Shown: positions 3,151-27,738 of the stretch, in pieces
Numbering within the stretch: the stretch's first letter is position 1
Layout of the letters: each line of letters opens with the position of its first letter
Assembly: GCA_965222615.1 (NCBI GenBank)
Contig: CBDCUI010000008.1
Coordinates: 192,001 to 256,000 of the forward strand
Direction: 5' to 3'
DNA from: Gammaproteobacteria bacterium
GTDB taxonomy: Bacteria; Pseudomonadota; Gammaproteobacteria; UBA4575
DNA length: 64,000 bases
Made by a program: the position numbers and the translations under genes
Notes under the pieces: model-generated
Database searches by the model: none
What the model was told of the DNA's origin: nothing
Seen by the model: the letters and a program-made list of their open reading frames with translations, nothing else

Positions 3151-3295
3151 GAGGGTATTTCTAGAAATAGTGGATTTTTTGTCAGAGCAAGGAAGTACCG
3201 CGCGCAAAACCGCAGTGTATATGTCAATACATGAGGATTTGAGCACGGGACTGACGAAGCTATGGCGGAAAAGACACATTTTTAGATGTACCCTC
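3151..3295. repeat. RPE-1-like palindromic element, 145 bp (copy D)
   Basis: IR gagggtatttctagaaat / atttttagatgtaccctc; core accgcagtgtatatgtcaatacatgaggatttgagcac; the + frame reads RKTAVYMSIHEDLSTGLT, like the RPE1 peptide; overlaps the dsrL stop. Confidence 0.8.
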
Positions 3296-5243
3296 AGTGG
3301 CCGAGTGCCATGTCGATGTACCCCGTCGGACAAACATCCGCACAAATATGGCAACCAATACATTTGCTGTAGTCGGTATCAACGTAACGACCGGTTGTAG
3401 ACTGATCTTTTTTAACCCGAAACACAGCATCTTGTGGGCAATACACCACACAGTTATCACATTCAAAACACATGCCGCAGCTCATGCAGCGATTGGCTTC
3501 TTCGATGGCTTGTTCTTCCGTGAAGTTTTTCATGCGTTCTTCAAAATGGCCTAGGACTTGTTTGGCATCCGGGCCGTGTTCTTCACGAAGGTTGCGTGGA
3601 GTAAATGGAAAGTGGCCTAAAAACAATTCGTCGTGTGCAATGATTTCGTGTTCTGCACGATCTTCATAGTTGTGCACAGAAAATTCAGATTGATCCGTAC
3701 CTCGATGAGAACCGTGCTCATAATTTTCAGGTTCTAGACCAAATTCTTGTAGCTTCTCTAATAGATCGAAGTGATGTACATCGACTTTGGGGCGTTTAGT
3801 GATTTCTTGATCGGTAAGAAAGTAATCAATACTTTCTGCAGCAATCGATGCTTGGCCGATGGCGGTGGTTAAAAGATGAGGGCGAATGATATCGCCACAT
3901 ACAAAATGACCCTCACGGTTGGGTATTGCATAAAATTTATCGGCATCAATTAAACCGCGACCGTTATCAAATTCTTCTAGGCCATCAAGGTCACCACCTT
4001 GGCCGATTGCAGATACGATTAAATCACACTCAATTTCAAATTCGGTGCCCTCAATCACAACTGGACGATTATCTTCCATTTTACATTCGGCCATACGTAA
4101 TGCCGTGGCACGCCCATCCTCACCAAGGATTACTTTTACTGGCATTACTCCATCTTTAATTTTCACGCCTTCACGCATGGCATCATGTACCTCGTGTTCG
4201 GCAGCAGTCATTTCTTCACGCGCAAATAGTGATGTAAGCGTTACCTCTGCACCCTGGCGTGATGCGGCATAGGCAGCATCATGTGCAACATAGCCACCAA
4301 TAACATGTTCAGGAGCTTCATCTTGTTTTAGCTTTTCAATTTTTCCGAGTCGGCGCGCAACCGAGACCACATCAATTGATGTATCACCGCCACCCACACA
4401 TACCACGCGATCTGCAGTAACCTGTAATCGACCGGTATTGAATGCTTCTAAGAACTTCACTCCAGATACACAGTTAGGTGCGTCGCCCCCTTCAACAGGA
4501 AGACCGCGTCCAGATTGACAACCTATGGCCCAAAGTACGGCATCAAATTCTTCTTCAAGTTCTTTTACAGAGATATCTTTTCCTACACGCGTGTTTAAAC
4601 GTGTTTCAATCTGGCCCATATCTAAAATGCGCTGAATCTCGTGATCTAAATAATTTCGTGGTGTACGGTAACCGGGAATACCATAACGAAACATTCCACC
4701 AAGCTCTTCATGCTCATCAAAAATTACACTAGCATGGTCTTTGCGGCGTAATTGATACGCTGCAGCGAGTCCTGCAGGTCCGCCACCGATAATGGCTATT
4801 TTTTTTCCAGATAATTCGGTTGGCGCTTCAAACTTAAAACCTTGTTCAAAGGCACTGTCACCGATGTATTGTTCAACGGCATTGATACCGACAAAATCTT
4901 CAACATGGTTACGGTTACATCCATCTTGACAAGGAGCAGGGCAAACACGCCCCATCATGGATGGAAACGGGTTTGCTTCGGTTGAACGTAAGAAGGCATA
5001 TTCTTGCATAGACATCTCTGCCGGCGGCTTTTCAATACCGCGCACAATTTGTAGCCAACCGCGAATATCTTCGCCGGATGGGCAGCTACCTTGACAGGGT
5101 GGTGTGCGATGCACATAAGTCGGACACTTATGTGAATGATCGGCTTCAAAAATCTTATCGCCAAAATTTCCCCACTCATAATCTCCATCTTCAAACTTTC
5201 TGAAAGTTAGTTTGTGAGTTAGTTGTTCCTTCGGGGTTGCCAT
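3294..5243 (-). CDS. dsrL: DsrL, iron-sulfur flavoprotein NAD(P)H:acceptor oxidoreductase (operon copy)
   Basis: PPCQGSCP, GRVCPAPCQDGCNR, FAD motif GGGPAG, second Rossmann GGGDTS, C-terminal CMSCGMCFECDNC/CIGCHICADVCP. Confidence 0.96.
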   Translation of the reverse strand: MATPKEQLTHKLTFRKFEDGDYEWGNFGDKIFEADHSHKCPTYVHRTPPCQGSCPSGEDIRGWLQIVRGIEKPPAEMSMQEYAFLRSTEANPFPSMMGRVCPAPCQDGCNRNHVEDFVGINAVEQYIGDSAFEQGFKFEAPTELSGKKIAIIGGGPAGLAAAYQLRRKDHASVIFDEHEELGGMFRYGIPGYRTPRNYLDHEIQRILDMGQIETRLNTRVGKDISVKELEEEFDAVLWAIGCQSGRGLPVEGGDAPNCVSGVKFLEAFNTGRLQVTADRVVCVGGGDTSIDVVSVARRLGKIEKLKQDEAPEHVIGGYVAHDAAYAASRQGAEVTLTSLFAREEMTAAEHEVHDAMREGVKIKDGVMPVKVILGEDGRATALRMAECKMEDNRPVVIEGTEFEIECDLIVSAIGQGGDLDGLEEFDNGRGLIDADKFYAIPNREGHFVCGDIIRPHLLTTAIGQASIAAESIDYFLTDQEITKRPKVDVHHFDLLEKLQEFGLEPENYEHGSHRGTDQSEFSVHNYEDRAEHEIIAHDELFLGHFPFTPRNLREEHGPDAKQVLGHFEERMKNFTEEQAIEEANRCMSCGMCFECDNCVVYCPQDAVFRVKKDQSTTGRYVDTDYSKCIGCHICADVCPTGYIDMALGH

Positions 5244-7749: not shown

Positions 7750-8082
7750 TTATACACAACCCGTTGGTTTTGGCAGTCCAGCATATTTACAAGCTTGTTT
7801 TGCGGGACCATACGGAAACAGTTCGTATAAATATTTGCTGTTGCCTTTATCTTTGCCAAGTTTTTTGCCAATTGCTTTAGTAAGTACGCGTACAGCGGGA
7901 GCAATTTGGTATTCTTCGTAGTATTCGCGTAAGAAGTTAATAACTTCCCAATGGTTGTCTCCAAGTTCTGCACCATCGGCTGCAGCCATTGCTTCGGCTA
8001 ACTCTGGTTGCCAATCATTGAGGTTAGCTAAATAACCTTCTTCATCAGTCTCGTAAGACTTGCCATTTACTTCTAAGGGCAT
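7750..8082 (-). CDS. dsrC: DsrC sulfur carrier
   Basis: C-terminal ACKYAGLPKPTGCV with both cysteines (CX10C). Confidence 0.97.
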   Translation of the reverse strand: MPLEVNGKSYETDEEGYLANLNDWQPELAEAMAAADGAELGDNHWEVINFLREYYEEYQIAPAVRVLTKAIGKKLGKDKGNSKYLYELFPYGPAKQACKYAGLPKPTGCV

Positions 8083-8109
8083 ACGACTCTCCTGTGTAAT
8101 AAAAATTAA

Positions 8110-8418
8110 TTAAAGCCAAGACTGAACTGTGTCATGTTCAGTCGTTAAATCTACAAAGCCGTCATAATCGATAACTTCAATACCATCGACCACATTATTG
8201 TCACTGAGGCCGCGGGCTTTGATATCGGGGCCTAAGACGTAAAATGAAAAATTACTCATTGCTTGAGATACAGTATCACTAAATTTTGTATTCTGCATCG
8301 CGCCAATAACACCATCTTCAAATAAAAGAACTGAGCTGCCTTTTTTTGCTAAACGCAAGCAGGATTCAAGCGTATTCCGTTCAAAGGGAGATTTATTTAC
8401 GGTATGTAATGTTGCCAT
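8110..8418 (-). CDS. dsrH: DsrH (TusB family)
   Basis: LHTVNKSPF...LLFEDGV...DIKARGL; order E-F-H-C. Confidence 0.95.
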   Translation of the reverse strand: MATLHTVNKSPFERNTLESCLRLAKKGSSVLLFEDGVIGAMQNTKFSDTVSQAMSNFSFYVLGPDIKARGLSDNNVVDGIEVIDYDGFVDLTTEHDTVQSWL

Positions 8419-8426
8419 AATGATTT

Positions 8427-8846
8427 TTAAAAACTTAGAATTACATCTTGTTCATCGATAATTGTGGACAATTCATCTCGTCCCACGACAAATAACGAAT
8501 CTTTTTCTGCCCAATCATCGTCTTCATCTTCGTATTTCAAGGCTTGAAGATCATCAGCTGATAAGCCGCGTTCCTCTAAAGATTCTTTTTCAACGTAAAC
8601 TTTTTTAATATCGTAATCACCCAAGGCGGTGTACGTTTTAGAAAAGTTTTTCATACCAATACCAGTGGTATCCTGATCTTTGGTAAGTTGATAAACGCCA
8701 TCGTCGGCAAATACCAGACTGATGTCTTGATCAAAAGCAGCTGCAATCAATACTACTTCTAATGATTCTAAAGCGTAAATGGTTCCATAGGGTGCTTTAC
8801 GATTTATGTAACAAAACTTTTTAACGATACCTTCGCCGTCTTCCAT
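8427..8846 (-). CDS. dsrF: DsrF (TusC family)
   Basis: KAPYGTIYALESLE, VFADDGVYQL, SLEERGL. Confidence 0.95.
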   Translation of the reverse strand: MEDGEGIVKKFCYINRKAPYGTIYALESLEVVLIAAAFDQDISLVFADDGVYQLTKDQDTTGIGMKNFSKTYTALGDYDIKKVYVEKESLEERGLSADDLQALKYEDEDDDWAEKDSLFVVGRDELSTIIDEQDVILSF

Positions 8847-8860
8847 TTAACTCTCCAATG

Positions 8861-9253
8861 TTAATCGCCAAAAGTTACCAGGCGATCGGCCTGAATACCG
8901 GCTTCAATGAGTTGTCCTAATCCTGAAATGCGAAAGCCTTTGGCCAAGTTATTTGCGTTTTTACCATGACGTTTCATCTCATCTTCGTCCAACATTCCAC
9001 GGCGTTGGGCAGCGGCAACGCATACCACTAAATCGAGGCCATGTTTTTCGGCTAGCTCAGACCATTCGTTGGTAAGGTTACGGTCATCTTGTGGAGGTAC
9101 ACTCAAGCTTGTGCCGTTGTTTACTCCATCATGATAGAAAAACACGCGAAAAATTTCGTGTCCTTTGTTTAACGCTGCTTTAGTAAATTGCAATGCAGAG
9201 TCAGACGATTGATGTGTATACGGGCCCTCATTAATAACGATTCCAAATTTCAC
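8861..9253 (-). CDS. dsrE: DsrE (TusD family) sulfurtransferase
   Basis: FFYHDGV; active Cys in VCVAAAQRRG; ISGLGQL. Confidence 0.96.
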   Translation of the reverse strand: MKFGIVINEGPYTHQSSDSALQFTKAALNKGHEIFRVFFYHDGVNNGTSLSVPPQDDRNLTNEWSELAEKHGLDLVVCVAAAQRRGMLDEDEMKRHGKNANNLAKGFRISGLGQLIEAGIQADRLVTFGD

Positions 9254-9268
9254 AGCGATCCCTCATGG

Positions 9269-10342
9269 TTAAAAGCGTATGTGCGTTGAAGAGTTTAGGC
9301 TTCGACGTGCACCACGCCAGTTATCAATGTGGAATTTAGTGAATGGAAGTCCAGTGACTTCAAAGAAACGCGGCCAACCAATGCGTTCTACCCAATCATT
9401 AATTCGTTCCCAGTCCTTGGCATTATCGCGATAGGCACGCAAGATGTTCTTCACCACTGCAGTAGCTTCTGGCCAACGCGGTGGGTTATTAGGGATCCCC
9501 GCAGCCACTAATTTTTGAAATGTAGGTTTGCTACGTGCATTACTATGATTCCCACCGACCCAAATTGCGAGCAGACTGTGTTCGGCGTCATTAATTTGCA
9601 TAGGAGGGCATGGTGGGTAACAAGCTCCACAACAGATACATTTTTTTTCATCGACTTCTAAAGACGGTTTGCCGTTGACTTGTGCGGGTCGTATTGCAGC
9701 AACCGGGCAACGTGCAACGACGGAAGGTCGTTCGCATACATTAGAGACTAGATCGTGATTAATTTTAGGTGGCTTGGTGTGTTGAACATTAATCGCAATA
9801 TCACCTTGTCCACCACAGTTAATTTGGCAACAAGACGTAGTAATGTGAACGCGGTTTGGCATATTGTTTTCACGAAATTCATCGATGAGTTCATCCATCA
9901 TTGCTTTTACCACACCTGAAGCATCGGTCCCTGGAATGTCGCAATGCAGCCACCCTTGGGTATGCGAAATCATAGCTACCGAATTTTTCGTGCCACCAAC
10001 AATAAATCCTTCTGATTCTAGTGCATCAATGAGTGGTAAAACTTTTGCTTCGTCTGCAACCATGTATTCGATATTGCTACGAATAGTAAAGCGCACATGT
10101 CCTTCGGCATATTTATCACCAATGTCACACAGTGTACGTAGCGTAAAGACGTCTAATATACGTTGTGTACCAGCACGTACGGTCCAGATCTTATCCCCAT
10201 TTGCAGCCACATGAAGTAACACGCCGGGCCGCGGATGCTCATGGTAATCCCAATTGCCATAATTTTTACGCATCAAAGGATGCATGTATTGAAAACCATC
10301 AGGACAGCCAGACTCAATAGGTGGGCGATGATCTTGCGCCAT
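9269..10342 (-). CDS. dsrB: Reverse dissimilatory sulfite reductase beta subunit
   Basis: HTQGWLHC, SCCQINCG, CICCGACYPPCP; ends STHIRF. Confidence 0.98.
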   Translation of the reverse strand: MAQDHRPPIESGCPDGFQYMHPLMRKNYGNWDYHEHPRPGVLLHVAANGDKIWTVRAGTQRILDVFTLRTLCDIGDKYAEGHVRFTIRSNIEYMVADEAKVLPLIDALESEGFIVGGTKNSVAMISHTQGWLHCDIPGTDASGVVKAMMDELIDEFRENNMPNRVHITTSCCQINCGGQGDIAINVQHTKPPKINHDLVSNVCERPSVVARCPVAAIRPAQVNGKPSLEVDEKKCICCGACYPPCPPMQINDAEHSLLAIWVGGNHSNARSKPTFQKLVAAGIPNNPPRWPEATAVVKNILRAYRDNAKDWERINDWVERIGWPRFFEVTGLPFTKFHIDNWRGARRSLNSSTHIRF

Positions 10343-10402
10343 ACTTTTCTCCTACGCTTATATTTATTAAAGGTGTGTAAGTAATAAGTTTTTTGATGTT
10401 GG

Positions 10403-11668
10403 CTAGCCAGCTGCAGTTTGTTTTTGCTCGGCTTGTTTACTAAACCATTTCTCAGCTTCGTCGTCCCAACTATCAGAACGGAAGTACGAGCTCTGACGCG
10501 GTTCGTTGACCATATTTGGATCTACGTCAACGCCGACGCCTTCTAAGAAGTTAACTAAACCAATGCGTTCAATCATCTCACCACAGCGTTCATGTTCCAG
10601 TCCGTTTTCAGCCCAAAAATCGATGGTCTCTTCTGCAAGCTCAACCAGACTTTCGTAATCTTCCTCGGTCTCAAGTTTCTTAAAGGGTACGATTACCGTT
10701 CCCATCAAGTCACCGATCTTAAGGGTACGTTTTCCACCAATTAATATCGTGATGCCTTTATCATCACCAGGTGATAACGCCTTTACCATGACGTTCAAAC
10801 AGTGCATACAACGCACACAGTCTTTGTTGTTTACCTCTAAAGTGTCGTCATCTTTAAGCGCAAGGGCTTGGGTAGGGCAGCGGGTGATTACATTATCGAT
10901 TACATACTGACGGCCTTTGCGTTTGACGAATTTTTTAACTTCGTCTTGGTCGACTTTCATGTCATCACGCCAAGTGCCAATGATGGAGAAATCCGAGCGT
11001 TCAATTGAATTCATGCAGTCATTGGGACAACCTGAAACTTTAAACTTAAATTTATATGGAAGTGCTGGTCGATGAACATCATCGGTAAAGTTATTAAGTA
11101 AGGTACGATGAATTTTCATTTCATCTGCATTGGACATTTCGCAACGTGCTGCACCCACACAGGACATGCCAGTACGAACACACGGACCTGCGCCACCTAA
11201 GTCCCAACCATAATCATTGATCTCATCGAAAAAGTGTTGCGTGTTTTCGGTGGTTGCACCGATGAACATAATATTGCCGGTTTGACCATGAAAGGTAACT
11301 AAACCTGAACCCCATTTTTCCCAACTATCACCAAGTTGCCGTAGCATATCTGTGGTGTAGTAATTGCCAGCAGGGGGTTGAACACGCAGGGTGTGAAATT
11401 CTTTTGATTCTGGAAAAGCTGAACCTACTTCCGAAAAACGCGGAATGATTCCACTGCCATAGCCAAATACCGATACGGTACCACCTTTCCAATAGCCTTT
11501 GCGTGTCTCGTACGAGTGTTCTAATTGACCCAGCAAAGAATTGGCTACGCCTTGAATGCGCTCGTCTTCGTGTTTATCGCGTAAACGTTTAATGCCTGAA
11601 ACAAAACTTGGCCAAGGGCCTTTTTCCAACTCATCTAGCATCGGAGTGGGGTGTTGCTTATTGGCCAT
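10403..11668 (-). CDS. dsrA: Reverse dissimilatory sulfite reductase alpha subunit
   Basis: TPMLDELEKGPWPSF; siroheme motifs CVGAARC and SGCPNDC; CVRCMHC. Confidence 0.98.
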   Translation of the reverse strand: MANKQHPTPMLDELEKGPWPSFVSGIKRLRDKHEDERIQGVANSLLGQLEHSYETRKGYWKGGTVSVFGYGSGIIPRFSEVGSAFPESKEFHTLRVQPPAGNYYTTDMLRQLGDSWEKWGSGLVTFHGQTGNIMFIGATTENTQHFFDEINDYGWDLGGAGPCVRTGMSCVGAARCEMSNADEMKIHRTLLNNFTDDVHRPALPYKFKFKVSGCPNDCMNSIERSDFSIIGTWRDDMKVDQDEVKKFVKRKGRQYVIDNVITRCPTQALALKDDDTLEVNNKDCVRCMHCLNVMVKALSPGDDKGITILIGGKRTLKIGDLMGTVIVPFKKLETEEDYESLVELAEETIDFWAENGLEHERCGEMIERIGLVNFLEGVGVDVDPNMVNEPRQSSYFRSDSWDDEAEKWFSKQAEQKQTAAG

Positions 11669-11817
11669 GCGGAATCTCCTAAGTAGTGTAATGTGGGATT
11701 CAGTATTTTGAATCTTTAAGGTACATGAAAAACATACCAGGGCCCGTTAAGGTTAACAGCCTTAAAAACCATGAAAATATACGTTTAGCAGTCTAGAAGT
11801 AGGATGAAAATGGCAAA

Positions 11818-11867
11818 ATCCCCTCCATGGGGTGCCGAGGTAAATACAGCTTACCCCAATAGGGATA
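11818..11867. promoter_or_regulatory. Two imperfect 7-2-7 palindromes (candidate operators) in the divergent dsrA/TauD-like promoter region
   Basis: atcccct-cc-atggggt (11818-11833) and tacccca-at-agggata (11852-11867) in otherwise AT-rich DNA. Confidence 0.45.
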
Positions 11868-11987
11868 GGATTTATGGGGACGATGAGATAAATGAAATTT
11901 ACTGTACTTAGAGTAATCTAAATTATTAATTTGTAACCGGTATATTTACAAAGCTTTATCATCGGAAGCTCCCATATTCCATAAGTT

Positions 11988-12905
11988 ATGCAACCATTTT
12001 TATTGCAAAACCGTCACGAGTATCGGCAATGGCGAGAAGCCAAATTACGCGACTATCCTGTGGATAGTGAGCAGTTGGTTGTGGAAATTCGTAATCCCTT
12101 CAAATTGACTACTCAGGAGCGAGATGCATTGCTCGCTATATGTCAAAAAACAAATTTAGCGATTTATAGATGCCTCAGTAAAAATGTCACTGATAGTAAT
12201 ATTGTATCTGCATTGGCTGCTCAAGTTGGATTGCAACAAATGGATGCCAACTTATGTGCAGACGAAGATAAAATTTCTGCGATTCAAGTGGTCGATAAAG
12301 GGCGTAGTAGCACATACATTCCCTATACCAATAAACCTTTAAATTGGCATACCGATGGTTACTACAACCAAGATCAAGAACGTATTCGCGCATTTTTAAT
12401 GTATTGTGTGCGGCCTGCAAGCTCAGGTGGAATCAATGCCTATCTGGATCCAGAAATTCTTTACATTTTGTTACGTGATGAAAATCCCGATTATATTGAA
12501 GCCTTGATGGATAAAAATGCAATGATGATTCCAGCTAATCTACAAGACCATGAGCAAATTCGTGGTGAAAAAACTGGCCCTGTATTTTTAATCGATGAGA
12601 ATACACAAACACTATATATGCGCTATAGCGCACGAACACGCAATGTTGTTTGGAATGACAACACTGTTACACAACATGCACGAAATAGAATGTTAGAAAT
12701 TCTAAATGATAACCACTATGTTTTCCGGCATCGTTTACAAGCAGGCGAAGGTGTGCTTTGTAACAATGTATTACACAATAGAACTTTGTTTGTAGATGAT
12801 CCTACAGCAAAACGATTACTGTACCGAGCTCGTTTTTATGAACGAGTATCAAAATCAAAACATTCTGATAATGATATGGAAACGGTGAGTCAATGCTGTG
12901 GTTAA
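11988..12905 (+). CDS. TauD/TfdA-family Fe(II)/2-oxoglutarate dioxygenase
   Basis: LNWHTDGYY (HxD), NNVLHNR, RLLYRARF. Confidence 0.85.
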   Translation: MQPFLLQNRHEYRQWREAKLRDYPVDSEQLVVEIRNPFKLTTQERDALLAICQKTNLAIYRCLSKNVTDSNIVSALAAQVGLQQMDANLCADEDKISAIQVVDKGRSSTYIPYTNKPLNWHTDGYYNQDQERIRAFLMYCVRPASSGGINAYLDPEILYILLRDENPDYIEALMDKNAMMIPANLQDHEQIRGEKTGPVFLIDENTQTLYMRYSARTRNVVWNDNTVTQHARNRMLEILNDNHYVFRHRLQAGEGVLCNNVLHNRTLFVDDPTAKRLLYRARFYERVSKSKHSDNDMETVSQCCG

Positions 12906-13093
12906 GTGAAGTCCTTATGCAAAATCATGAGTTGAGGTCATTTGAAGAACTTAAAAAAAAGTTAAGTGAACGCGCACAACAAGGAGAAATGTTTTTTCGT
13001 ATGGACGTGCGACCACCTTTTCAAGATACTCCTGAAAATTGGGAGGATATTCTAGAGTCTGTATTTACATCGGTGAATAATCAGCCTGAGTAA
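12893..13093 (+). CDS. Small hypothetical protein of the dsr-associated cluster (66 aa)
   Basis: Overlaps the upstream stop; ends 7 nt before cas6; DVRPPFQDTPENWED. Confidence 0.75.
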   Translation: MLWLSEVLMQNHELRSFEELKKKLSERAQQGEMFFRMDVRPPFQDTPENWEDILESVFTSVNNQPE

Positions 13094-13100
13094 GCTACGA

Positions 13101-13790
13101 ATGTATTGGCAAGACAAAGAGGAAAAAGATAAACAATATGTCGTACCGGACGATATCGTTGATTTATCTTTCAAAGTACAGTGTAAACAATTGCCATTAG
13201 ACCATGCTTATGTGTTGTCACAAACCATTCAGAAAGAATTACCCTGGATTGCAGATGAACCGCAAGCGGGTATTCATTTAATCCATGGTGCAGAGTCAGG
13301 CAATGGTTGGATTCGACCCCAAGAACCTGATGCAATTTTGAATTTGTCTCGGCGCACACGTTTTATGTTGAGATTACCTAAGCAGCGTATTGACGATGCA
13401 AATCTCATTGCAGGTAAAACCCTAAAAGTAGGCGGACATGAGTTGGTGCTGAGCAATCCACAGCAGAAACTTCTTTCCCCGCTGACTACCATATTTGCGC
13501 GCTATATCATTACAGAAAATATTGAAAACGAAGAGGCCTTCTTAGACCAAGCCGCTGAGTTGGTAAAACAAAAAGGGATTCAGGTGACTAAGATGATGAG
13601 TGGGCGCGCCCATGTATTGCGTATGCCGGGACAAAATTTGTCTACGCGTAGCTTGATGATCGATGGGTTGGAAGTGGAGCAGTCAATTTATTTGCAACAG
13701 CAGGGTTTGGGCGAAGGACGTAAAGTGGGTTGTGGGTTGTTTCTTCCCCATAAGGGTATTGACGCAGTGGGACAAGCCCAGCAAAAATAA
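13101..13790 (+). CDS. cas6: Orphan Cas6 (Cmx6/I-MYXAN-like) RAMP endoribonuclease
   Basis: N-terminal LPLDHAYVL; LSRRTRFMLRLP; C-terminal G-rich loop GLGEGRKVGCGLFLP (GhGxxxxxGhG). Confidence 0.88.
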   Translation: MYWQDKEEKDKQYVVPDDIVDLSFKVQCKQLPLDHAYVLSQTIQKELPWIADEPQAGIHLIHGAESGNGWIRPQEPDAILNLSRRTRFMLRLPKQRIDDANLIAGKTLKVGGHELVLSNPQQKLLSPLTTIFARYIITENIENEEAFLDQAAELVKQKGIQVTKMMSGRAHVLRMPGQNLSTRSLMIDGLEVEQSIYLQQQGLGEGRKVGCGLFLPHKGIDAVGQAQQK

Positions 13791-13794
13791 TATG

Positions 13795-13920
13795 CTAGAA
13801 GCCCTGATTTATTCTGAAACTTTGTTAAAAAATATTTCAAAATGCTCATGTATTTACATATACACTCCGCTTTTTCAATATTTTTTGCCTCGTTTCAAAA
13901 TAAATCAAGGCTTCCTTTAG
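13795..13920. repeat. ERIC/RPE-like element (copy F)
   Basis: IR gaagccctgatttattctgaaac / gtttcaaaataaatcaaggcttc; core ctca-tgtat-ttacat-ataca-ctcc. Confidence 0.85.
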
Positions 13921-13999
13921 AAAATTAAAAATCTCCATTTATGGCCTAGTAACTATTATAAAAATTGTTGTTTATATTGTTAGAAGTGAGGAGTGAAGT

Positions 14000-14341
14000 A
14001 TGGGTATGAATGTAAATGGCAAAGAAGTTGAAACTACCGATTCAGGGTTTCTTGTTAATTTAGAAGATTGGAATAAAGAAGTGGCGCAAGTGATTGCACA
14101 AGAAGAAGATGTTGAGCTTACTGATAAGCACTGGGATGTAATTAATTATCTCAGAGACGAATTTGTAAATAATAACGGCAACCAGCCAAACACCCGTACT
14201 ATGGTTAAGGCGATGGCTAAGGCATGGGGCGATAAGAAATTAAATGCCAAGGTCTTATATGATTTATTTCCTGGTAATCCAAGTAAGCAAGCTGGACGTA
14301 TTGGTGGGCTGCCGGAAAGTCGTCGTAAGGGTGGCTACTAG
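14000..14341 (+). CDS. DsrC/TusE-family protein with no cysteine
   Basis: ETTDSGFLVNLEDW, HWDVINYLR, LYDLFP; ends KQAGRIGGLPESRRKGGY. Confidence 0.9.
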   Translation: MGMNVNGKEVETTDSGFLVNLEDWNKEVAQVIAQEEDVELTDKHWDVINYLRDEFVNNNGNQPNTRTMVKAMAKAWGDKKLNAKVLYDLFPGNPSKQAGRIGGLPESRRKGGY

Positions 14342-14483
14342 AACCCATCTCAAAATAAATCTTTTGCATTGATGCTTCGTTCTCGCTTTTCTCAAATGCT
14401 CATTTACTAACGTGTAAACTGTGCTTCTCGAAAAGCTCGGGCCTTGCCTCAAAGCAAAATCTTGAATTTTGAGCTAGGCTCTA
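14339..14483. repeat. ERIC/RPE-like element, 145 bp (copy G)
   Basis: IR tagaacccatctcaaaat / attttgagctaggctcta; core ctca-tttac-taacgt-gtaaa-ctgt; begins with the TAG stop. Confidence 0.85.
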
Positions 14484-14676
14484 AATAGATACACTATGAA
14501 CTAACTGGAAGTTTGTAGAGTAAACCCACATCATTTGTCGTTATGCGGAGTAATAGTGACGTAGCAATCCAGTTAAAAAGTATTCAGATTAAGCTTTACT
14601 ATTTATCCATAGTGGAATACAGACAGCACTAACTAAATCATTAAATTGTTAGATAGAAATTAACTGAGGATTCAAT

Positions 14677-14880
14677 ATGAGTTCGAAACAAGAAAAGATT
14701 CAAAAATTGCTCGACATGCAAAAGAAATTCATTGAGTTGGAGCAAAGTGGTGAAATTACCGCAGCAAATTATTGGGCACCTGAAGATGGTTCTAACCTTG
14801 ATGGATTTAAAGAAGAATATATGAAACTCGCTATGGAAGTGGTGGATGATGCGCATGAAGAAGTAGGTTCATCACGTTAG
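14677..14880 (+). CDS. Small acidic hypothetical protein (67 aa)
   Basis: RBS gagga; followed by a terminator. Confidence 0.8.
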   Translation: MSSKQEKIQKLLDMQKKFIELEQSGEITAANYWAPEDGSNLDGFKEEYMKLAMEVVDDAHEEVGSSR

Positions 14881-14906
14881 ATTAAATTTTCTATCATTAA
14901 TTTTTT

Positions 14907-14939
14907 AAAAAAGGCCACCATTTTTTGGTGGCCTTTTTT
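14907..14939. terminator. Bidirectional rho-independent terminator
   Basis: aaaaaaggccacca-ttttt-tggtggcctttttt between convergent genes. Confidence 0.9.
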
Positions 14940-14971
14940 ATTGAGCGGAACATATTTAATTAAATATCAAT

Positions 14972-15116
14972 ATAATCTATCTCAACATTGTAGATAGCGC
15001 GCTTAGACAAGGCGCAAACTTTTTTCAGAGCGGAGTTTACGAGTAGTAAATGAGCTATCTGAAGAAAGTTTTGCAACGCAGTATCAGCGTGCTAGATGCA
15101 TTTTGAGGTAGATTAT
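14972..15116. repeat. ERIC/RPE-like element, 145 bp (copy H)
   Basis: IR ataatctatctcaa / ttgaggtagattat; acaaggcgc...ggag-tttac-gagta-gtaaa-tgag...caacgcag; abuts the stop of the minus-strand gene. Confidence 0.85.
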
Positions 15117-15784
15117 TAAACTTCACTCCACATTCGTACCAAATTCACATAGACATTATCAATGCGCTTGGTGTCTTCTGACTCGGGATCTTTACGCAAC
15201 ATTTTTTCTCTGGTTTTGCTGAGTTGATACAATAAATTACGTTGTTCATTGTTACGAATTAAGCTTTGTACCCAAGTTACTGCAACTAATCTCTCGCCAC
15301 TGCTTACTTTTGTGACACGATGTCGTGTAGTTGCAGGATACAACACGGCATCTCCGGCATTGGCTTTTATCGCTTGTTCTCCAAAAGGAGTTTGAATAAT
15401 CAACTCGCCACCTTGGTATTCATCTGGAGAATTAAGGAATATGGTTAGCGCAAGATCAGAGCGATAACGTTCTCCTTCTCCCATAATAGGGTCATCTATG
15501 TGCTCCCCATACTGCATGCCTGTTTGATAGCGTGCATAAAAAGGTGCTGCAACTCTGTGTGGCAATGCAGCTCGTTGATATTGAGGGTGTCGCACGAGGT
15601 TATGCATTACGATTTGATTGAGCCCAGCAATAATTTGTTCATTATCAAGCTCTTCATTGTTTTTGACATTTCTTGCAATTTTCCCCGCCGATTGTTTTCC
15701 ATCTCCAAATGTTGCATTCTTTAATAAGTTTTGAACCTGCTGCAGTTCTTTTTCACCCAGAATATGTTCAATCAGGACTAACAT
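15116..15784 (-). CDS. PKHD-type Fe(II)/2OG hydroxylase (PiuC/YbiX family)
   Basis: YGEHIDD, RSDLALTIFL, YQGGEL, HRVTKVSSGER. Confidence 0.9.
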   Translation of the reverse strand: MLVLIEHILGEKELQQVQNLLKNATFGDGKQSAGKIARNVKNNEELDNEQIIAGLNQIVMHNLVRHPQYQRAALPHRVAAPFYARYQTGMQYGEHIDDPIMGEGERYRSDLALTIFLNSPDEYQGGELIIQTPFGEQAIKANAGDAVLYPATTRHRVTKVSSGERLVAVTWVQSLIRNNEQRNLLYQLSKTREKMLRKDPESEDTKRIDNVYVNLVRMWSEV

Positions 15785-15842
15785 TTTTTGTATTTTGCTA
15801 ACAGGCTATACTTAGTAAAGTTTTTCAAATACATATAAGGCA

Positions 15843-16166
15843 ATGATACTTAAAGTTACGATTGATGAAAAAACATTTCCACTACAAGTCGATGATGAAA
15901 TGATACATCGTGGTAGTGATGTATTTAAAAAAATGGATGATGACATGAATCAAGGATGGCAAATGAGTAGAGTTTGGGTAGATAGGCCAAACGATTTGCA
16001 GCGTTGTCAAATTGCCGCAGATAAAATGTTAACGGCTATACAACGAGAAAAAACGGCAACAGTTGGCCTGATGGCTGCATACATCATGTATAAAATACCT
16101 AAAGTTGAAGCGATTGATATCGATACTTCGGGAGATATGACCCTGACTGAAATTGTGACCAATTAA
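15843..16166 (+). CDS. Hypothetical protein
   Basis: 107-aa ORF with RBS taagg; KMDDDMNQGWQMSR. Confidence 0.75.
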   Translation: MILKVTIDEKTFPLQVDDEMIHRGSDVFKKMDDDMNQGWQMSRVWVDRPNDLQRCQIAADKMLTAIQREKTATVGLMAAYIMYKIPKVEAIDIDTSGDMTLTEIVTN

Positions 16167-16367
16167 AAAGTCGTTGGTATTGTTTCTGAGCGGAAATCCT
16201 GCAAAACCAATATTATATAGATTTTTAATCAACACTTTTTCTAGTGTTGTAACCTATGTACTGGCTCGCATTTTATTGCATAATCAGCAATACTAAATTA
16301 CCACAACATGATTTTAATTCTTCCGACAATCTCTAAGTGTCGGAATACCTGTAAGCGGGAGGTATTT

Positions 16368-18296
16368 ATGGCGGAGGAGAAACTCACGTTTCGACGCTAC
16401 AAGGATGGTGATCATATAACGACGCAGTGGAATAGGGATGTTGTTCAAAACGGGCTGTCTGAGATTTGCCCGGCTTATATTCATCGTACCCCTCCATGTC
16501 AGGCGAGTTGTCCTTCCGGTCACGACATCCGTGGTTGGCTCTCTATTGTCCGCGGTATTGATAAGCCCGTTGGTGATACTGCTTGGCAGGAATATGCATT
16601 TCGACGCATGACCATGTCCAATCCGTTTCCATCGGTAATGGGGCGAGTGTGTCCGGCACCTTGTGAAGATGGTTGTAATCGCAATGAAGTAGAAGAAGCG
16701 GTAGGTATTAATTCAGTAGAGCAACATGTAGGGGATTGGGCTTTACAACATGATCTTACTTTCGCTACACCAGAGGCTGATAGCGGTAAAAAAGTTGCCA
16801 TTGTTGGTGGTGGTTGCGCAGGTTTAACGGCAGCTTATTTTCTACGTCAAAAAGGCCATGCCTGTACAATTTTTGATGAGTACGACCAACTCGGTGGCAT
16901 GATGGTGTTTGGTATTCCAGGTTATCGTACCCCGCGCTCAGTGCTTGAAGGTGAGATTAAGCGGATTATCGATATGGGTGTGGAAGTTAAACTCAATACC
17001 CGCGTTGGTACTGACGTTTCCGTGCAAGAGTTAGAGCGGGATTACGATGCAATATTTTGGGGAATTGGTGCGGTTGCGGGTAAGGCCCTGCCTATTCCAG
17101 GTAGCGACGCCGCAAATGTTGTCGATGGCATGTCTTTTTTACGTGCCTTTAATGAAGGACGCCTGCAATTTATCAGTGGACGAATTTTAGTAATTGGTGC
17201 GGGTGACACCGCGATGGACGTGCTGGCTGTGGCACGACGTATTGGCAATATTCATCATGTTACAGAAAAAGATCGTCCGGAAAATGTAATTCTGGGCTAT
17301 ACCGTACACGACGTTGCCGAGGCAGCGCGGCGCAAAGGTGCTGATGTGTGGGTAGTGTATCGACGTCCCATCTCTCAGGCGCCAGCAACCAAGCATGAAT
17401 TGGAAGCGGTAATCCGTGAAGGTGTGGAGATCCACGATGGATTATCTCCTGTAGAAGTAATTAAAGATGAAGAGGGCAAAGCCAAGGCATTAAAGGTGGT
17501 GCCTGTTGATATGGTTGATGGCGAATTGAAAACCAGAGATGGTGAGGAATTTGAAATCGAATGTAGTCTAATTGTCGGCGCAACGGGCCAAACCGGTGAT
17601 TATCGGGGTATTGAAGAATTCGACAATGGGCGTGGCCTAATGGATGCGGATAAAGTCTACAGAGTGGTCGGCAAGCCCGGACATTTTGTCGCAGGCGATG
17701 CAATTAATCCGCATTTATTAACCACGGCAATTGGTCAAGCTTCGATCGCAGCAGAAGGGTTGCATCATTACTTAATGGGAGATGAAATACCGGCTCGTCC
17801 CAAGATTGATTCTCATCATTTTAAATTATTAGATGAATTGCGTGAACGTGAATTAGCACCCACGCAATTTGAACCACAAGAAGTGTGGGGCACCGATTCT
17901 TCAGATTTTGCCGTACATAATTACGAAGATCGTTCCGCTACAGAAATCGCGACTCACGACCAATTACATCTGGCTTACTTTGAAGAAGTTCCCATGAATC
18001 GGCGGGATGAAGCCAATATCACTGCTGATGAAGTGCTAAATAATTTTCAGGAAAGATTTTCCGCACTAGAAGAACAAAAAGCGATTGATGAAGCCGAACG
18101 TTGTATGAGTTGTGGAATGTGTTTCGAGTGCGATAACTGTGTGGTGTATTGCCCTGAAGATGCGATATTTAGAGTCAAAAAAGAGCAGCGTGCAATGGGA
18201 CGCTATGTGGATACCGATTATGATAAATGCGTAGGTTGTCATATTTGCTCAGAAGTCTGTCCGAGCGGCTACATCAAGATGGGATTATCGTATTAA
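16368..18296 (+). CDS. dsrL: Second DsrL paralog, NADP(H)-type motif
   Basis: Colinear with the operon DsrL (HRTPPCQASCP, CMSCGMCFECDNC); GAGDTA and VVYRR; start ATG 16368 after GGGAGG. Confidence 0.9.
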   Translation: MAEEKLTFRRYKDGDHITTQWNRDVVQNGLSEICPAYIHRTPPCQASCPSGHDIRGWLSIVRGIDKPVGDTAWQEYAFRRMTMSNPFPSVMGRVCPAPCEDGCNRNEVEEAVGINSVEQHVGDWALQHDLTFATPEADSGKKVAIVGGGCAGLTAAYFLRQKGHACTIFDEYDQLGGMMVFGIPGYRTPRSVLEGEIKRIIDMGVEVKLNTRVGTDVSVQELERDYDAIFWGIGAVAGKALPIPGSDAANVVDGMSFLRAFNEGRLQFISGRILVIGAGDTAMDVLAVARRIGNIHHVTEKDRPENVILGYTVHDVAEAARRKGADVWVVYRRPISQAPATKHELEAVIREGVEIHDGLSPVEVIKDEEGKAKALKVVPVDMVDGELKTRDGEEFEIECSLIVGATGQTGDYRGIEEFDNGRGLMDADKVYRVVGKPGHFVAGDAINPHLLTTAIGQASIAAEGLHHYLMGDEIPARPKIDSHHFKLLDELRERELAPTQFEPQEVWGTDSSDFAVHNYEDRSATEIATHDQLHLAYFEEVPMNRRDEANITADEVLNNFQERFSALEEQKAIDEAERCMSCGMCFECDNCVVYCPEDAIFRVKKEQRAMGRYVDTDYDKCVGCHICSEVCPSGYIKMGLSY

Positions 18297-18347
18297 AAAA
18301 CACGATCAAAAAATAACAACTCCGTAGTTAAACTTTTCGCTTAACGT

Positions 18348-18686
18348 TTAAACTGCGCTGCCAAACCCTTTATCAACTGCCCCGGCAGGTGCATGCAGTC
18401 CTGCTATTCTACATCCTTGTGCGACTGGCCCACCTGGAAACAAGTCATATAAATATTTCATGCCACCTTTATGATGAAATTTTTCTTCTAATGCATCGTG
18501 AAGTTCGCGCATATTTATTTGGTTGATTTCGTGGCGTGAATAAAATTCTTGCAAGGCGTGAACTACACTAAAGTGGTCCTCGGTTAGAGTTAACCCTTCT
18601 TCGGTGGCTGCTTTGATTGTATCTTCTTCTGTCCAATCTTCAGATATAAACGCACGCGCATAATCATTTTTTATAGATGTGGTCAT
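18348..18686 (-). CDS. DsrC/TusE-family protein with only the internal cysteine
   Basis: LTEDHFSVV, KYLYDLFPGGPVAQGCRIAGL; no penultimate Cys. Confidence 0.88.
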   Translation of the reverse strand: MTTSIKNDYARAFISEDWTEEDTIKAATEEGLTLTEDHFSVVHALQEFYSRHEINQINMRELHDALEEKFHHKGGMKYLYDLFPGGPVAQGCRIAGLHAPAGAVDKGFGSAV

Positions 18687-18913
18687 AAACTTATCCCTCT
18701 ATGCAAAACAATAAAAAATTATTATTGAACTATTATGTTAGCTAGAATGAATTATACAGTATCTACATAGCTAACGAGAAAATGGGCGGAGTTAATTAGC
18801 AATAAAATCCAGGAGAGTTAAAAGCCTGGATGTAGCGATTATTCATCCAATTAATGTTTATATAGCTGAAAAGTTTATTTTATAGTCAAAAACTTGTATG
18901 GAATCATGGTCAT

Positions 18914-19372
18914 TTAGCGCAAGAATTTTTCCATTCTTTGGTGCTTGAGTGCGAGCAACTCACTTTTACTGTCACCCTCTATTTTGTAACCATTATGAAT
19001 ATACAATGGTATTGCAACTTCGCGCGCATATAGCCAGCAAACTTGCACGTCATTAGAATGTGCAATTTGCTCAAGTTCTCTAAGAATAGAACTACTGATC
19101 CCTTGCCGTTGATAATCATCATGCACTGCCATATATCGAATGCGTGCTGACTTATCGGGCTCGATATGAATTCTGCCCACACCAATCACATTTTGATCAT
19201 GATAAGCAGCAATATGAAAAGCGCTTTTTTCCAATTCGTCTTGTTCGCTACCGCGTGGGAGTCCGAGTGGTTTTCGCAGCATTTCCCATCGAAACAAAAA
19301 ATAGTCTTTAAATTCCTGAGTAGTTGTTGGAGATTTGTAGACAATCAAAATAATGAGGTTAGGCAAACACAA
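18914..19372 (-). CDS. GNAT-family acetyltransferase
   Basis: IRYMAVHDDYQRQGIS acetyl-CoA motif. Confidence 0.85.
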   Translation of the reverse strand: MCLPNLIILIVYKSPTTTQEFKDYFLFRWEMLRKPLGLPRGSEQDELEKSAFHIAAYHDQNVIGVGRIHIEPDKSARIRYMAVHDDYQRQGISSSILRELEQIAHSNDVQVCWLYAREVAIPLYIHNGYKIEGDSKSELLALKHQRMEKFLR

Positions 19373-19988
19373 CCCAGGTAGTTGCGATGTACTTAAGTCC
19401 TTTTTTTAACGTAACGCCACGATGTTCATGAGTCCAAAATGGCGGGAACAATAACAATTTACCAATTTCAGGTTTAATTTTTACATTTTGAAATAAAAAT
19501 TCAGTTTCACCACCAGGACCTGCTACATTATTTAAATACCATATGGCGACAAGTTGGCGATGACTGAAATCGTGGCTGCCTCCATCAATATGCCAGTGAT
19601 AATATTCACCTGCACTCGTTTTTTGAATGCCATAACCCATGTCTTTGAATGGGCCTTTAAAAAAAGGATAGGTTTCACGAAATTCTTGAATGGCAGATCC
19701 TAGTGCACGAAACAGTGTCCGATCTATATCTTGCCAGTGTTTTTTCCCGCTTATTACAAGGTCTGTGGATTTCTTAATGCTAATGTCTTTATCAGCGAGC
19801 TGCCCTATTCGTCCCTCGTATTGTTCATCTTTAGCATTCTCAAATCGTTGAACTACATCTGTACAAAATTGTTCAGAAAGTGAATGGGGTTGCTCAAAAA
19901 TAAAACTATTGGGTTTTACTTCACTTATTGTTTGTGATGATGTTGTAGCTCGTACGTTGCACGAGGCTGTTTCTTGATTATGAGGCAT
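19359..19988 (-). CDS. 2OG-Fe(II) oxygenase
   Basis: YHWHID, WYLN, GGETEF, THEHRG, KYIATTW. Confidence 0.88.
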   Translation of the reverse strand: MPHNQETASCNVRATTSSQTISEVKPNSFIFEQPHSLSEQFCTDVVQRFENAKDEQYEGRIGQLADKDISIKKSTDLVISGKKHWQDIDRTLFRALGSAIQEFRETYPFFKGPFKDMGYGIQKTSAGEYYHWHIDGGSHDFSHRQLVAIWYLNNVAGPGGETEFLFQNVKIKPEIGKLLLFPPFWTHEHRGVTLKKGLKYIATTWVVFA

Positions 19989-27410: not shown

Positions 27411-27738
27411 AGTCTTAATGATGCCATTAAAAAACTGGCAAGGCAGGATACAAAATGGGATGTTCACCAAAATATATCTCTACTGAGGTACGAATGGGGA
27501 ACAAAAAAGTGTCTTTTACCCTTTTACTAAATTGTTTTGCTTTGGCAATTACTCATTTGCTTACATACATAAGCCCTATTTTTCAAAAACACCGTATCTT
27601 GTTCGAGAGCAAAATCCACTACTTTTATACTTGGTATTGTGATCGGGAATTAATCTCAATATGGCTATTACTAGGATTTTGGCATTTCAAGTATGATGGT
27701 TGACTAATTAGTACTCTGATTCAACATCGGGAACAAAT

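Follow-up and report, generated by a model that had tools for sequence, protein, structure and literature searches.

The tauD-like gene upstream of dsrA in sulfur oxidizers bears the name dsrQ, which a passage of Loeffler et al. (2020; PMC7596348) quotes from Lenk et al. (2012); this account is repeated in a passage of Gwak et al. (2022; PMC9371685). According to the same part of Loeffler et al., dsrQ occurs in (facultatively) aerobic chemotrophs, and the idea in print is that its product releases sulfite from sulfonates (PMC7596348). Here, we analyzed a 64,000-nucleotide stretch of a Gammaproteobacteria bacterium (assembly GCA_965222615.1, contig CBDCUI010000008.1, positions 192,001 to 256,000), hereafter the window, in which a gene of this type heads a string that includes a relative of Cas6, a protein of CRISPR systems. 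The first gene of the string (11988-12905, + strand; 305 aa) encodes a TauD/TfdA-family Fe(II)/2-oxoglutarate dioxygenase (PF02668, E 3.9e-18). It has the position of the described dsrQ and the same divergent orientation to dsrA (10403-11668, - strand), and it is called dsrQ below. It is followed on the + strand by p66 (12893-13093), which encodes an acidic protein of 66 aa, by the gene of the Cas6-like protein (cas6; 13101-13790; 229 aa) and by a gene for a DsrC-family protein without Cys (rspA; 14000-14341; 113 aa). In contrast, the passages on DsrQ in Loeffler et al. name tauD/dsrQ and a 'hyp' gene, and no Cas6-family gene, p66 or Cys-less DsrC-like gene (PMC7596348). The published sulfonate idea leaves these linked genes unexplained.

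The proteins DsrR and DsrS of Allochromatium vinosum are also close in kind, since they are likewise accessory, non-catalytic, dsr-linked and implicated in regulation. However, their folds are unrelated to that of Cas6 (DsrR is IscA-like), and their genes stand last in the dsr operon and not in a divergent unit. Both reportedly act at the post-transcriptional level, in work of Grimm et al. from 2010/2011. A role of DsrR in regulating sulfur oxidation is also stated in a passage of PMC11406059. We found no paper linking a Cas6-family gene to dsr in the full texts that could be searched, supplements, which possibly name such open reading frames, lying outside this search. The exaptation of Cas6 proposed here looks undescribed in the literature searched. 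Cas proteins outside immunity are rare, and such cases as transposon- or plasmid-borne systems still use CRISPR RNAs.

We analyzed the distribution of the Cas6 family (PF09559) and of DsrA, counted at E <=1e-60, in 401 genomes drawn evenly over the class. PF09559 was present in 125 genomes and DsrA in 125; 119 genomes carried both, 6 the Cas6 relative only, 6 DsrA only and 270 neither. These values are given as counts with no P value, as related genomes are not independent. Of the six genomes with Cas6 only, G057 and the unpublished G343 hold CRISPR-type copies adjoining Cas1, and another three are drafts whose family mates carry both PF09559 and DsrA. Within the family of the source organism, the gene was found in 35 of 36 genomes, the exception being 82% complete. 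Two genomes of 1.1 Mb, 99% complete, keep both the Cas6 relative and DsrA, and in one of them (G222) the whole unit adjoins dsrA. In a phylum sample, whose make-up differs from that of the class sample, PF09559 was found in 2 of 301 genomes. One motif scan placed the dsr-linked clade of the family in at least 582 species genomes. A HMMER search against 1.84 billion representatives of clusters at 50% identity returned 1052 matches at E <=1e-3, among them 162 at E <=1e-30. A p66 profile matched 107 of the 401 class genomes, and all but one of these (106) carry the Cas6 relative.

The physical linkage to dsrAB was then read from two sets of loci, which overlap by about a dozen places (L064-L075 and a few others such as L091). 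Among 30 loci of relatives found by tblastn with the window proteins, dsrA was present in 27 and the full order dsrQ-p66-cas6-rspA in 25; the three loci without dsrA are a short contig, a lone copy and the CRISPR-type copy. Among 80 named loci from the motif scan of species genomes, we observed dsrA in 67, a TauD-like gene in 72 and p66 in 75, together with three genes that lie further along the window, namely p67 (54 loci), a PKHD dioxygenase gene (58) and p107 (50), many of the lacking genes in this set being contig-end cuts. The named taxa include Thiogranum, Thiohalobacter, Sulfuricaulis, Acidiferrobacterales, Thioalkalispiraceae, Thiomargarita, Parabeggiatoa and Arenicellales, among others. 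Median gaps were 4 nt between dsrQ and p66 (n=75), 9 nt between p66 and cas6 (n=68), 81.5 nt between cas6 and rspA (n=80) and 118 nt between rspA and p67 (n=57). Where the gene lies away from dsrAB, the trio dsrQ-p66-cas6 was intact in 5 of 7 loci, and in one family (two genomes) Cas6, p66 and DsrA are all kept though dispersed. A first reading of the window, made from its letters and here called the sequence-only reading, had pointed to solo Cas6/Cmx6 genes near dsr in other sulfur oxidizers, and these loci and the co-occurrence confirm that statement. Overall, the clade of Cas6 relatives has become a constant accessory of the oxidative (reverse) Dsr (rDsr) system.

Two side observations concern the inside of the unit. 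An extra gene of 238 aa that matches no Pfam family, as at L060:8534-9250, separates p66 from cas6 in 19 of the 80 named loci; its lineages include Sulfuricaulis and Acidiferrobacterales, among others, and most such loci have no p67 match. At another locus (L062:10324-10522; genome G011), a 50-nt unit occurs four times in tandem between the TauD-like gene and p66.

The product of 13101-13790 matched PF09559 at E 8.3e-61 (205.7 bits against a cut-off of 26.7) over profile positions 1-190 of 191. An AlphaFold2 model based on 38 sequences reached a predicted local distance difference test score of 89.1 and a predicted template modelling (TM) score of 0.85. When the model was compared with the PDB using Foldseek, ranks 1-17 were all Cas6, Cse3 or Cascade chains. 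At the top stood 8fcj_B and 8fcu_B, from the Cascade of a type I-B CRISPR-associated transposon (CAST), with TM scores of 0.75-0.83 (8fcj_B: E 9.9e-17, TM 0.75/0.79); after the CAST chains came archaeal Cas6 and Cse3. The protein is predicted to adopt the Cas6 fold, which consists of two ferredoxin/RRM-like domains. The DH motif corresponds to D34 and H35, and in the 38-sequence alignment H35 was invariant, while G202, G204, G210, C211 and G212 of the Gly-rich loop were invariant or nearly so. The profiles and the alignment thus agree with the sequence-only reading, which had described a full-length Cas6 with an N-terminal DH and a G-rich loop. The His of the DH motif is taken as catalytic, from work on other Cas6 enzymes. 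It was kept in all 100 locus proteins and in 129 of 140 cluster representatives, and all 41 CRISPR-type sequences keep the DH motif.

Such a protein could be an ordinary CRISPR Cas6 that serves an array elsewhere in the genome, or the remnant of a decaying CRISPR system. It scored above the cut-off of the NCBI equivalog for type I-MYXAN Cas6/Cmx6 (TIGR02807, cas6_cmx6; 147.7 bits against 98.85), and in public records these proteins go under the name 'type I-MYXAN CRISPR-associated protein Cas6/Cmx6'. However, the cas genes and the array that go with TIGR02807 membership were not present in the source genome. The genome is a 3.10-Mb assembly of 9 contigs, 99.79% complete, with one PF09559 gene by profile search. 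Profile searches of the whole genome gave no match over the cut-off for Cas1, Cas2, DevR/Cas7 or Cas5d, and the cas3_core and Cas9 profiles returned only sub-cut-off matches, to helicases and HNH proteins. Neither TRF nor a k-mer scan for repeats at even spacing found a CRISPR array in the genome, both returning coding repeats only; as a positive control, the k-mer scan recovered the 21-repeat array beside a CRISPR-type relative (L061). The repeat of the L061 array had no match in the source genome with up to 10 mismatches allowed. The absence of any other cas gene and of an array, at first noted for the 64 kb, was thus found to be true of the whole genome. Since neither array nor cas genes are present in a genome of this completeness, the Cas6-like protein is not a CRISPR component.

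The same alternative was weighed across the class. Cas1 was carried by 145 genomes of the class sample (including G343, G075 and G177); it was found somewhere in 57 of the 119 genomes with both PF09559 and DsrA, which would suit an ordinary Cas6, whereas the other 62 have no Cas1. When 120 loci were scanned, an array within approximately 10 kb was found at 1 of the 118 dsr-type loci (L040), about 6 kb from the Cas6 relative. However, this array has 22 repeats and belongs to a type II system with Cas9 and Cas1 (L040:16124-17556 with L154:1948-6333; genome G036), and type II CRISPR systems are not known to use Cas6. This type II system is inserted directly after the conserved block, which we take as incidental. 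A remnant is also at odds with the relatives themselves, which share 42-88% identity and a constant length across families and are kept in 1.1-Mb genomes. Together with the separate position of the clade described below, these results make an ordinary or decaying CRISPR Cas6 extremely unlikely.

As a separate observation on the assembly (G000), three tandem repeats with units of 324-339 nt lie outside the window, at C7:198335-208312, C8:844755-848192 and C8:851551-853251 (30, 10.6 and 5 copies, respectively, at 99% match); they probably encode giant repeat proteins.

To compare the dsr-linked proteins with those of CRISPR systems, we examined the 140 representatives listed with a length of at least 185 aa, with identity down to 33%, and 222 CRISPR-linked relatives of about 195 aa obtained by a search with the L061 protein, which, where named, come from Deltaproteobacteria and Thermodesulfobacteriota. 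Both types share the Pfam family and the fold (e.g., 8fcj_B), and the dsr-linked proteins have the DH motif and the GxGxxxxxGCG loop in common with the relatives of L061. In contrast to CRISPR-linked Cmx6, the dsr-type proteins carry 16-17 extra residues at the N-terminus, an insertion of seven residues, (S)GNGWxRP, and a C-terminal PHKG extension. The GW insertion was found in 138 of the 140 representatives, the N-terminal extension in 130 and a PHK-like C-terminus in 130; all 100 locus proteins combine these three marks with His35. The insertion was absent from all 41 CRISPR-type sequences. The context differs as well, the L061 gene adjoining its 21-repeat array and Cas1 and the gene of the window standing without array or cas genes. 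A FastTree phylogeny was built from 155 rows, a choice out of 281. In it, the 41 CRISPR-type rows fell on one side of a branch with a Shimodaira-Hasegawa-like support of 100, and all 70 sampled representatives and all dsr-linked rows fell on the opposite side. The protein of the window therefore does not group with the CRISPR-linked members, as its TIGR02807 assignment would have it. To judge from this tree, the dsr-linked proteins are a distinct and old clade of Cas6/Cmx6. A comparison of neighborhood and phylogeny with CRISPR presence had been proposed as the check on the exaptation of Cas6 that the sequence-only reading inferred. The homologs were found linked to dsr and in a separate clade, the source genome holds no array for the protein to process, and the linkage, the absence of CRISPR and the clade all bear the exaptation out. 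Taken together, these results make an exaptation to the rDsr system well supported, and the Cas6-like protein has very probably taken on a job in sulfur metabolism.

What this job may be was considered in the light of the conserved residues. The reading that we favor, tentatively and at somewhat less than an even chance, is that the Cas6-like protein recognizes one specific RNA and acts post-transcriptionally on sulfur-oxidation output, together with DsrQ and p66. One near-contiguous string, transcribed divergently from dsrAB from a shared control region with operator-like palindromes, encodes the Cas6-like protein, DsrQ and the acidic p66. The kept Cas6 scaffold, with His35, the Gly-rich loop and a new conserved Arg/Lys cluster, would read a specific RNA instead of a CRISPR repeat. 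It would perhaps cut that RNA and, with DsrQ and p66, exert a post-transcriptional effect on sulfur-oxidation genes. RNA recognition is held most likely on account of His35 and the Gly-rich loop, both of which have lasted throughout a very deep clade. Eleven conserved basic columns are peculiar to the clade, an SRRTR strand among them, and it has a new conserved Arg cluster (R84, R85, R87, R91 and R96).

Several results weigh against RNA recognition. His35 is missing from 11 of the 140 representatives, replaced by Y, N or C, with one gap. The median isoelectric point (pI) of the dsr-type clade was 6.17, with 13% of proteins above 8 (n=240), compared to 9.48, with 92.5% above 8, for the CRISPR-linked relatives (n=120). 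Fourteen columns hold at least 80% Lys or Arg in the CRISPR type; 2 of them stay so in the dsr-type clade, the other 12 being lost. Nor does the clade conserve the basic residues of its Gly-rich loop. By pI and by basic columns, a basic RNA-binding surface like that of the CRISPR-linked members was thus not found. p66, the supposed partner, went undetected in 17 dsr-type carriers (19 Cas6 carriers when the two CRISPR-type ones are included). On the side of a possible target, Rfam returned nothing above the gathering score for positions 8000-19500, and a blastn-short comparison of 14 spacers with all loci gave a depth of conserved non-coding sequence of <=1 beyond the own family. The role of a post-transcriptional regulator that the sequence-only reading inferred, with binding and cutting of stem-loop RNA, is somewhat weakened by the loss of basic columns, the near-neutral charge and the lack of a conserved hairpin.

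The same observations would suit a Cas6 scaffold that no longer binds nucleic acid and serves as a protein adaptor, holding p66, p67, RspA or DsrQ and so regulating or assisting rDsr. The fall of pI from about 9.5 to 6.2, with 12 of 14 CRISPR-type basic columns gone, points that way, as does the lack of a conserved RNA element near the unit. The neighbors are all acidic (pI 4.65 for p66, 5.41 for the RspA-type protein, 4.51 for p67 and 4.73 for p107), and the Arg cluster could face them. The tight packing of cas6 with p66, the near-complete presence of a Cas6 relative in p66 genomes, and the insertion and conserved tails peculiar to the clade are further points in its favor. However, a framework of His35 and Gly-rich loop would be unusual to keep in a purely structural exaptation, and the 17 dsr-type carriers without detectable p66 count against an adaptor as well as against the favored reading. 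We consider an adaptor a serious though less likely alternative, and recognition of a specific RNA remains the reading we prefer.

We also analyzed the control region between dsrA and dsrQ. A 16-bp palindrome at 11852-11867, TACCCC-AATA-GGGATA (consensus TAYCYC-N4-GRGRTA), is a putative operator; its type occurs in most of 82 aligned distinct spacers. On the - strand, a conserved box, CACCCCATGGAGGGGA (11819-11834; consensus (C)ACCCCAT(G/A)GGTAGGA), lies 23 nt upstream of a -10-like hexamer, TAGACT (11790-11795; AGTCTA on the + strand), of a putative dsrA promoter. Read on the dsrA strand, the 82 spacers show the palindrome, 17 nt, the box (C)ACCCCAT(G/A)GGTAGGA, about 23 nt, and then the conserved CTAGACT. 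A second palindrome of this kind, TATCCA-TAGT-GGAATA (14604-14619), lies upstream of p67, at a fixed distance to it in many loci, and is also a putative operator; it was the sole copy of its kind in the genome by regular-expression search. It is followed after 22 nt by a -10-like hexamer, TAAATT (14642-14647, + strand), whose position was counted from the sequence. In loci counted by hand, distant taxa included, a TAnnnT box stood 22 nt after GG(A)ATA(C/T). A further operator-type palindrome, TATCTC-TACT-GAGGTA, lies at 27475-27490. A loosened palindrome was found 8 times in the 3.1-Mb genome, and shuffled sequence gave 3-8 matches per 1.1 Mb, so that no enrichment was seen.

In the alignment of spacers, read by eye and not computed, the palindrome half-sites occurred in all four variant combinations and without strand bias. 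Since the half-sites vary independently, they argue for DNA and not for RNA pairing, and the palindromes look like DNA operators and promoters rather than RNA hairpins, which is a further point against a Cas6 target in these spacers. One candidate target was set aside on such grounds. The motif upstream of p67, with its hairpin-like shape and conserved tail in about 20 spacers, had been considered as a solitary Cas6 site, and this reading was dropped when the palindrome with the TAnnnT box at fixed spacing was seen over more taxa. The promoter design shared by the dsrA/dsrQ and p67 regions, which distant families have kept, suggests that dsrAB, the dsrQ unit and p67 may be under one transcription factor. 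At the other end of the unit, a G+C-rich hairpin flanked by A/T runs (14907-14939) is probably a bidirectional terminator that ends it. All five sub-threshold Rfam matches (E 0.046-0.69, leader- or terminator-like families) fell on this hairpin.

The arrangement of the genes agrees in part with a first description of the unit. The open reading frames and profiles confirmed five genes on the + strand, divergent from dsrA. The claim of a tight operon stood for dsrQ-p66-cas6, where dsrQ and p66 overlap by 13 nt and a gap of 7 nt separates p66 from cas6. It did not stand for the two genes that follow, as the rspA gene comes after 209 nt and p67 after a further 335 nt, with a promoter-like element of its own. 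In the dsrAB operon, dsrA is accompanied by dsrB (9269-10342, - strand) and, farther along, by the true dsrC (7750-8082) and dsrL (3294-5243). Beyond the terminator lie a gene for a PKHD/YbiX-type Fe(II) dioxygenase (15116-15784, - strand; NF003974, 244.9 bits against a cut-off of 143) and, divergent from it, p107 (15843-16166, + strand), which encodes an acidic protein of 107 aa with no family match. The block thus encodes two oxygen-dependent dioxygenases, the dsrQ product and the PKHD/YbiX-type protein. The dsrQ product had no sequence relative in the PDB at E <=0.01.

In another explanation, the Cas6-like protein would be the substrate-recognition partner of DsrQ, either for the hydroxylation or desulfuration of an RNA or for a sensing of O2, by way of a hydroxylation step, that sets rDsr expression. 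No part of the module is more conserved or more tightly packed than the trio dsrQ-p66-cas6. The Fe/2-oxoglutarate triad of DsrQ is kept, its HxD (WHTDGYY) and distal H (VLHNR) being conserved in 81 sequences, and a second dioxygenase of PKHD type is a conserved neighbor. The occurrence of dsrQ in (facultatively) aerobic chemotrophs would fit a link to oxygen (PMC7596348), as would the activation of rDsr at 2% O2 but not in air stated in a passage of a Ruegeria preprint (10.1101/2024.06.14.599071). However, the published speculation on DsrQ concerns the release of sulfite from sulfonates (PMC7596348). A contact between DsrQ and the Cas6-like protein is a conjecture. The TauD family, moreover, acts mostly on small molecules. 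We regard a recognition partner of DsrQ as improbable, and we would give as little credence to the boldest proposal, in which a recruited Cas6 scaffold would be the recognition subunit of DsrQ, with p66, in a hydroxylase directed by RNA or protein or in a sensor of O2, coupling the oxygen supply to reverse Dsr. Were the protein indeed such a subunit, something derived from CRISPR would be at work in core energy metabolism. Recognition of a specific RNA is still preferred over this explanation.

Among the other proteins of the unit, that of 14000-14341 (PF04358, E 4.7e-36) had as best PDB match 1yx3, the DsrC of A. vinosum (E 1.9e-30). Its C-terminal arm is free of Cys, so that the two Cys of DsrC proper are lacking, and it ends in an invariant RKGGY; on these two features it was classed as RspA-type. 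The RspA family is named in a passage of PMC8477390. Like RspA, the 113-aa neighbor belongs to the DsrC family and lacks both C-terminal Cys; it differs by the invariant RKGGY end and by its fixed linkage to the Cas6 relative. An alignment of 31 RspA-type sequences had 28 invariant columns, a conservation above that of the neighbors, and the arm comes in two subtypes, PESRRKGGY and PQSTRKGGY. The DsrC of A. vinosum is reported to bind the dsr promoter. From this and from the operators nearby, we would infer only that the Cys-less DsrC-like protein is a candidate reader of the palindromes. As a separate observation, two further genes follow the unit (16308-18686), and both recur in relatives. 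One encodes a second DsrL-like flavoprotein of 662 aa, approximately 55% identical to DsrL-like open reading frames that relatives carry in their dsr operons; the product of the other is a DsrC-like protein of 112 aa without the C-terminal Cys of DsrC.

The two small acidic proteins were also analyzed. p66 belongs to no Pfam or NCBIfam family; an alignment of 32 sequences had 11 invariant columns, and a fold search against the PDB gave no match (best E 0.64). The automatic name of its Atlas clusters assigns p66 to the DsrC family, an assignment that we rejected, as a comparison of its profile with the DsrC-like alignment gave a probability of 0.3%. The product of p67 (14677-14880, + strand), a protein of 67 aa with no family match, was represented by 70 unique homologs in an alignment.

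Overall, these results describe a clade of the Cas6 family whose presence follows that of a central sulfur-cycle enzyme nearly one to one and which even genomes of 1.1 Mb retain. The type I-MYXAN label carried by these proteins will inflate CRISPR counts in sulfur oxidizers and hide a probable missing part of rDsr. For sulfur microbiology, dsrQ becomes part of a defined unit, open to testing, in which three to five genes share a promoter architecture. To CRISPR biology, the clade is a natural case of a Cas6 surface rebuilt for a new partner.

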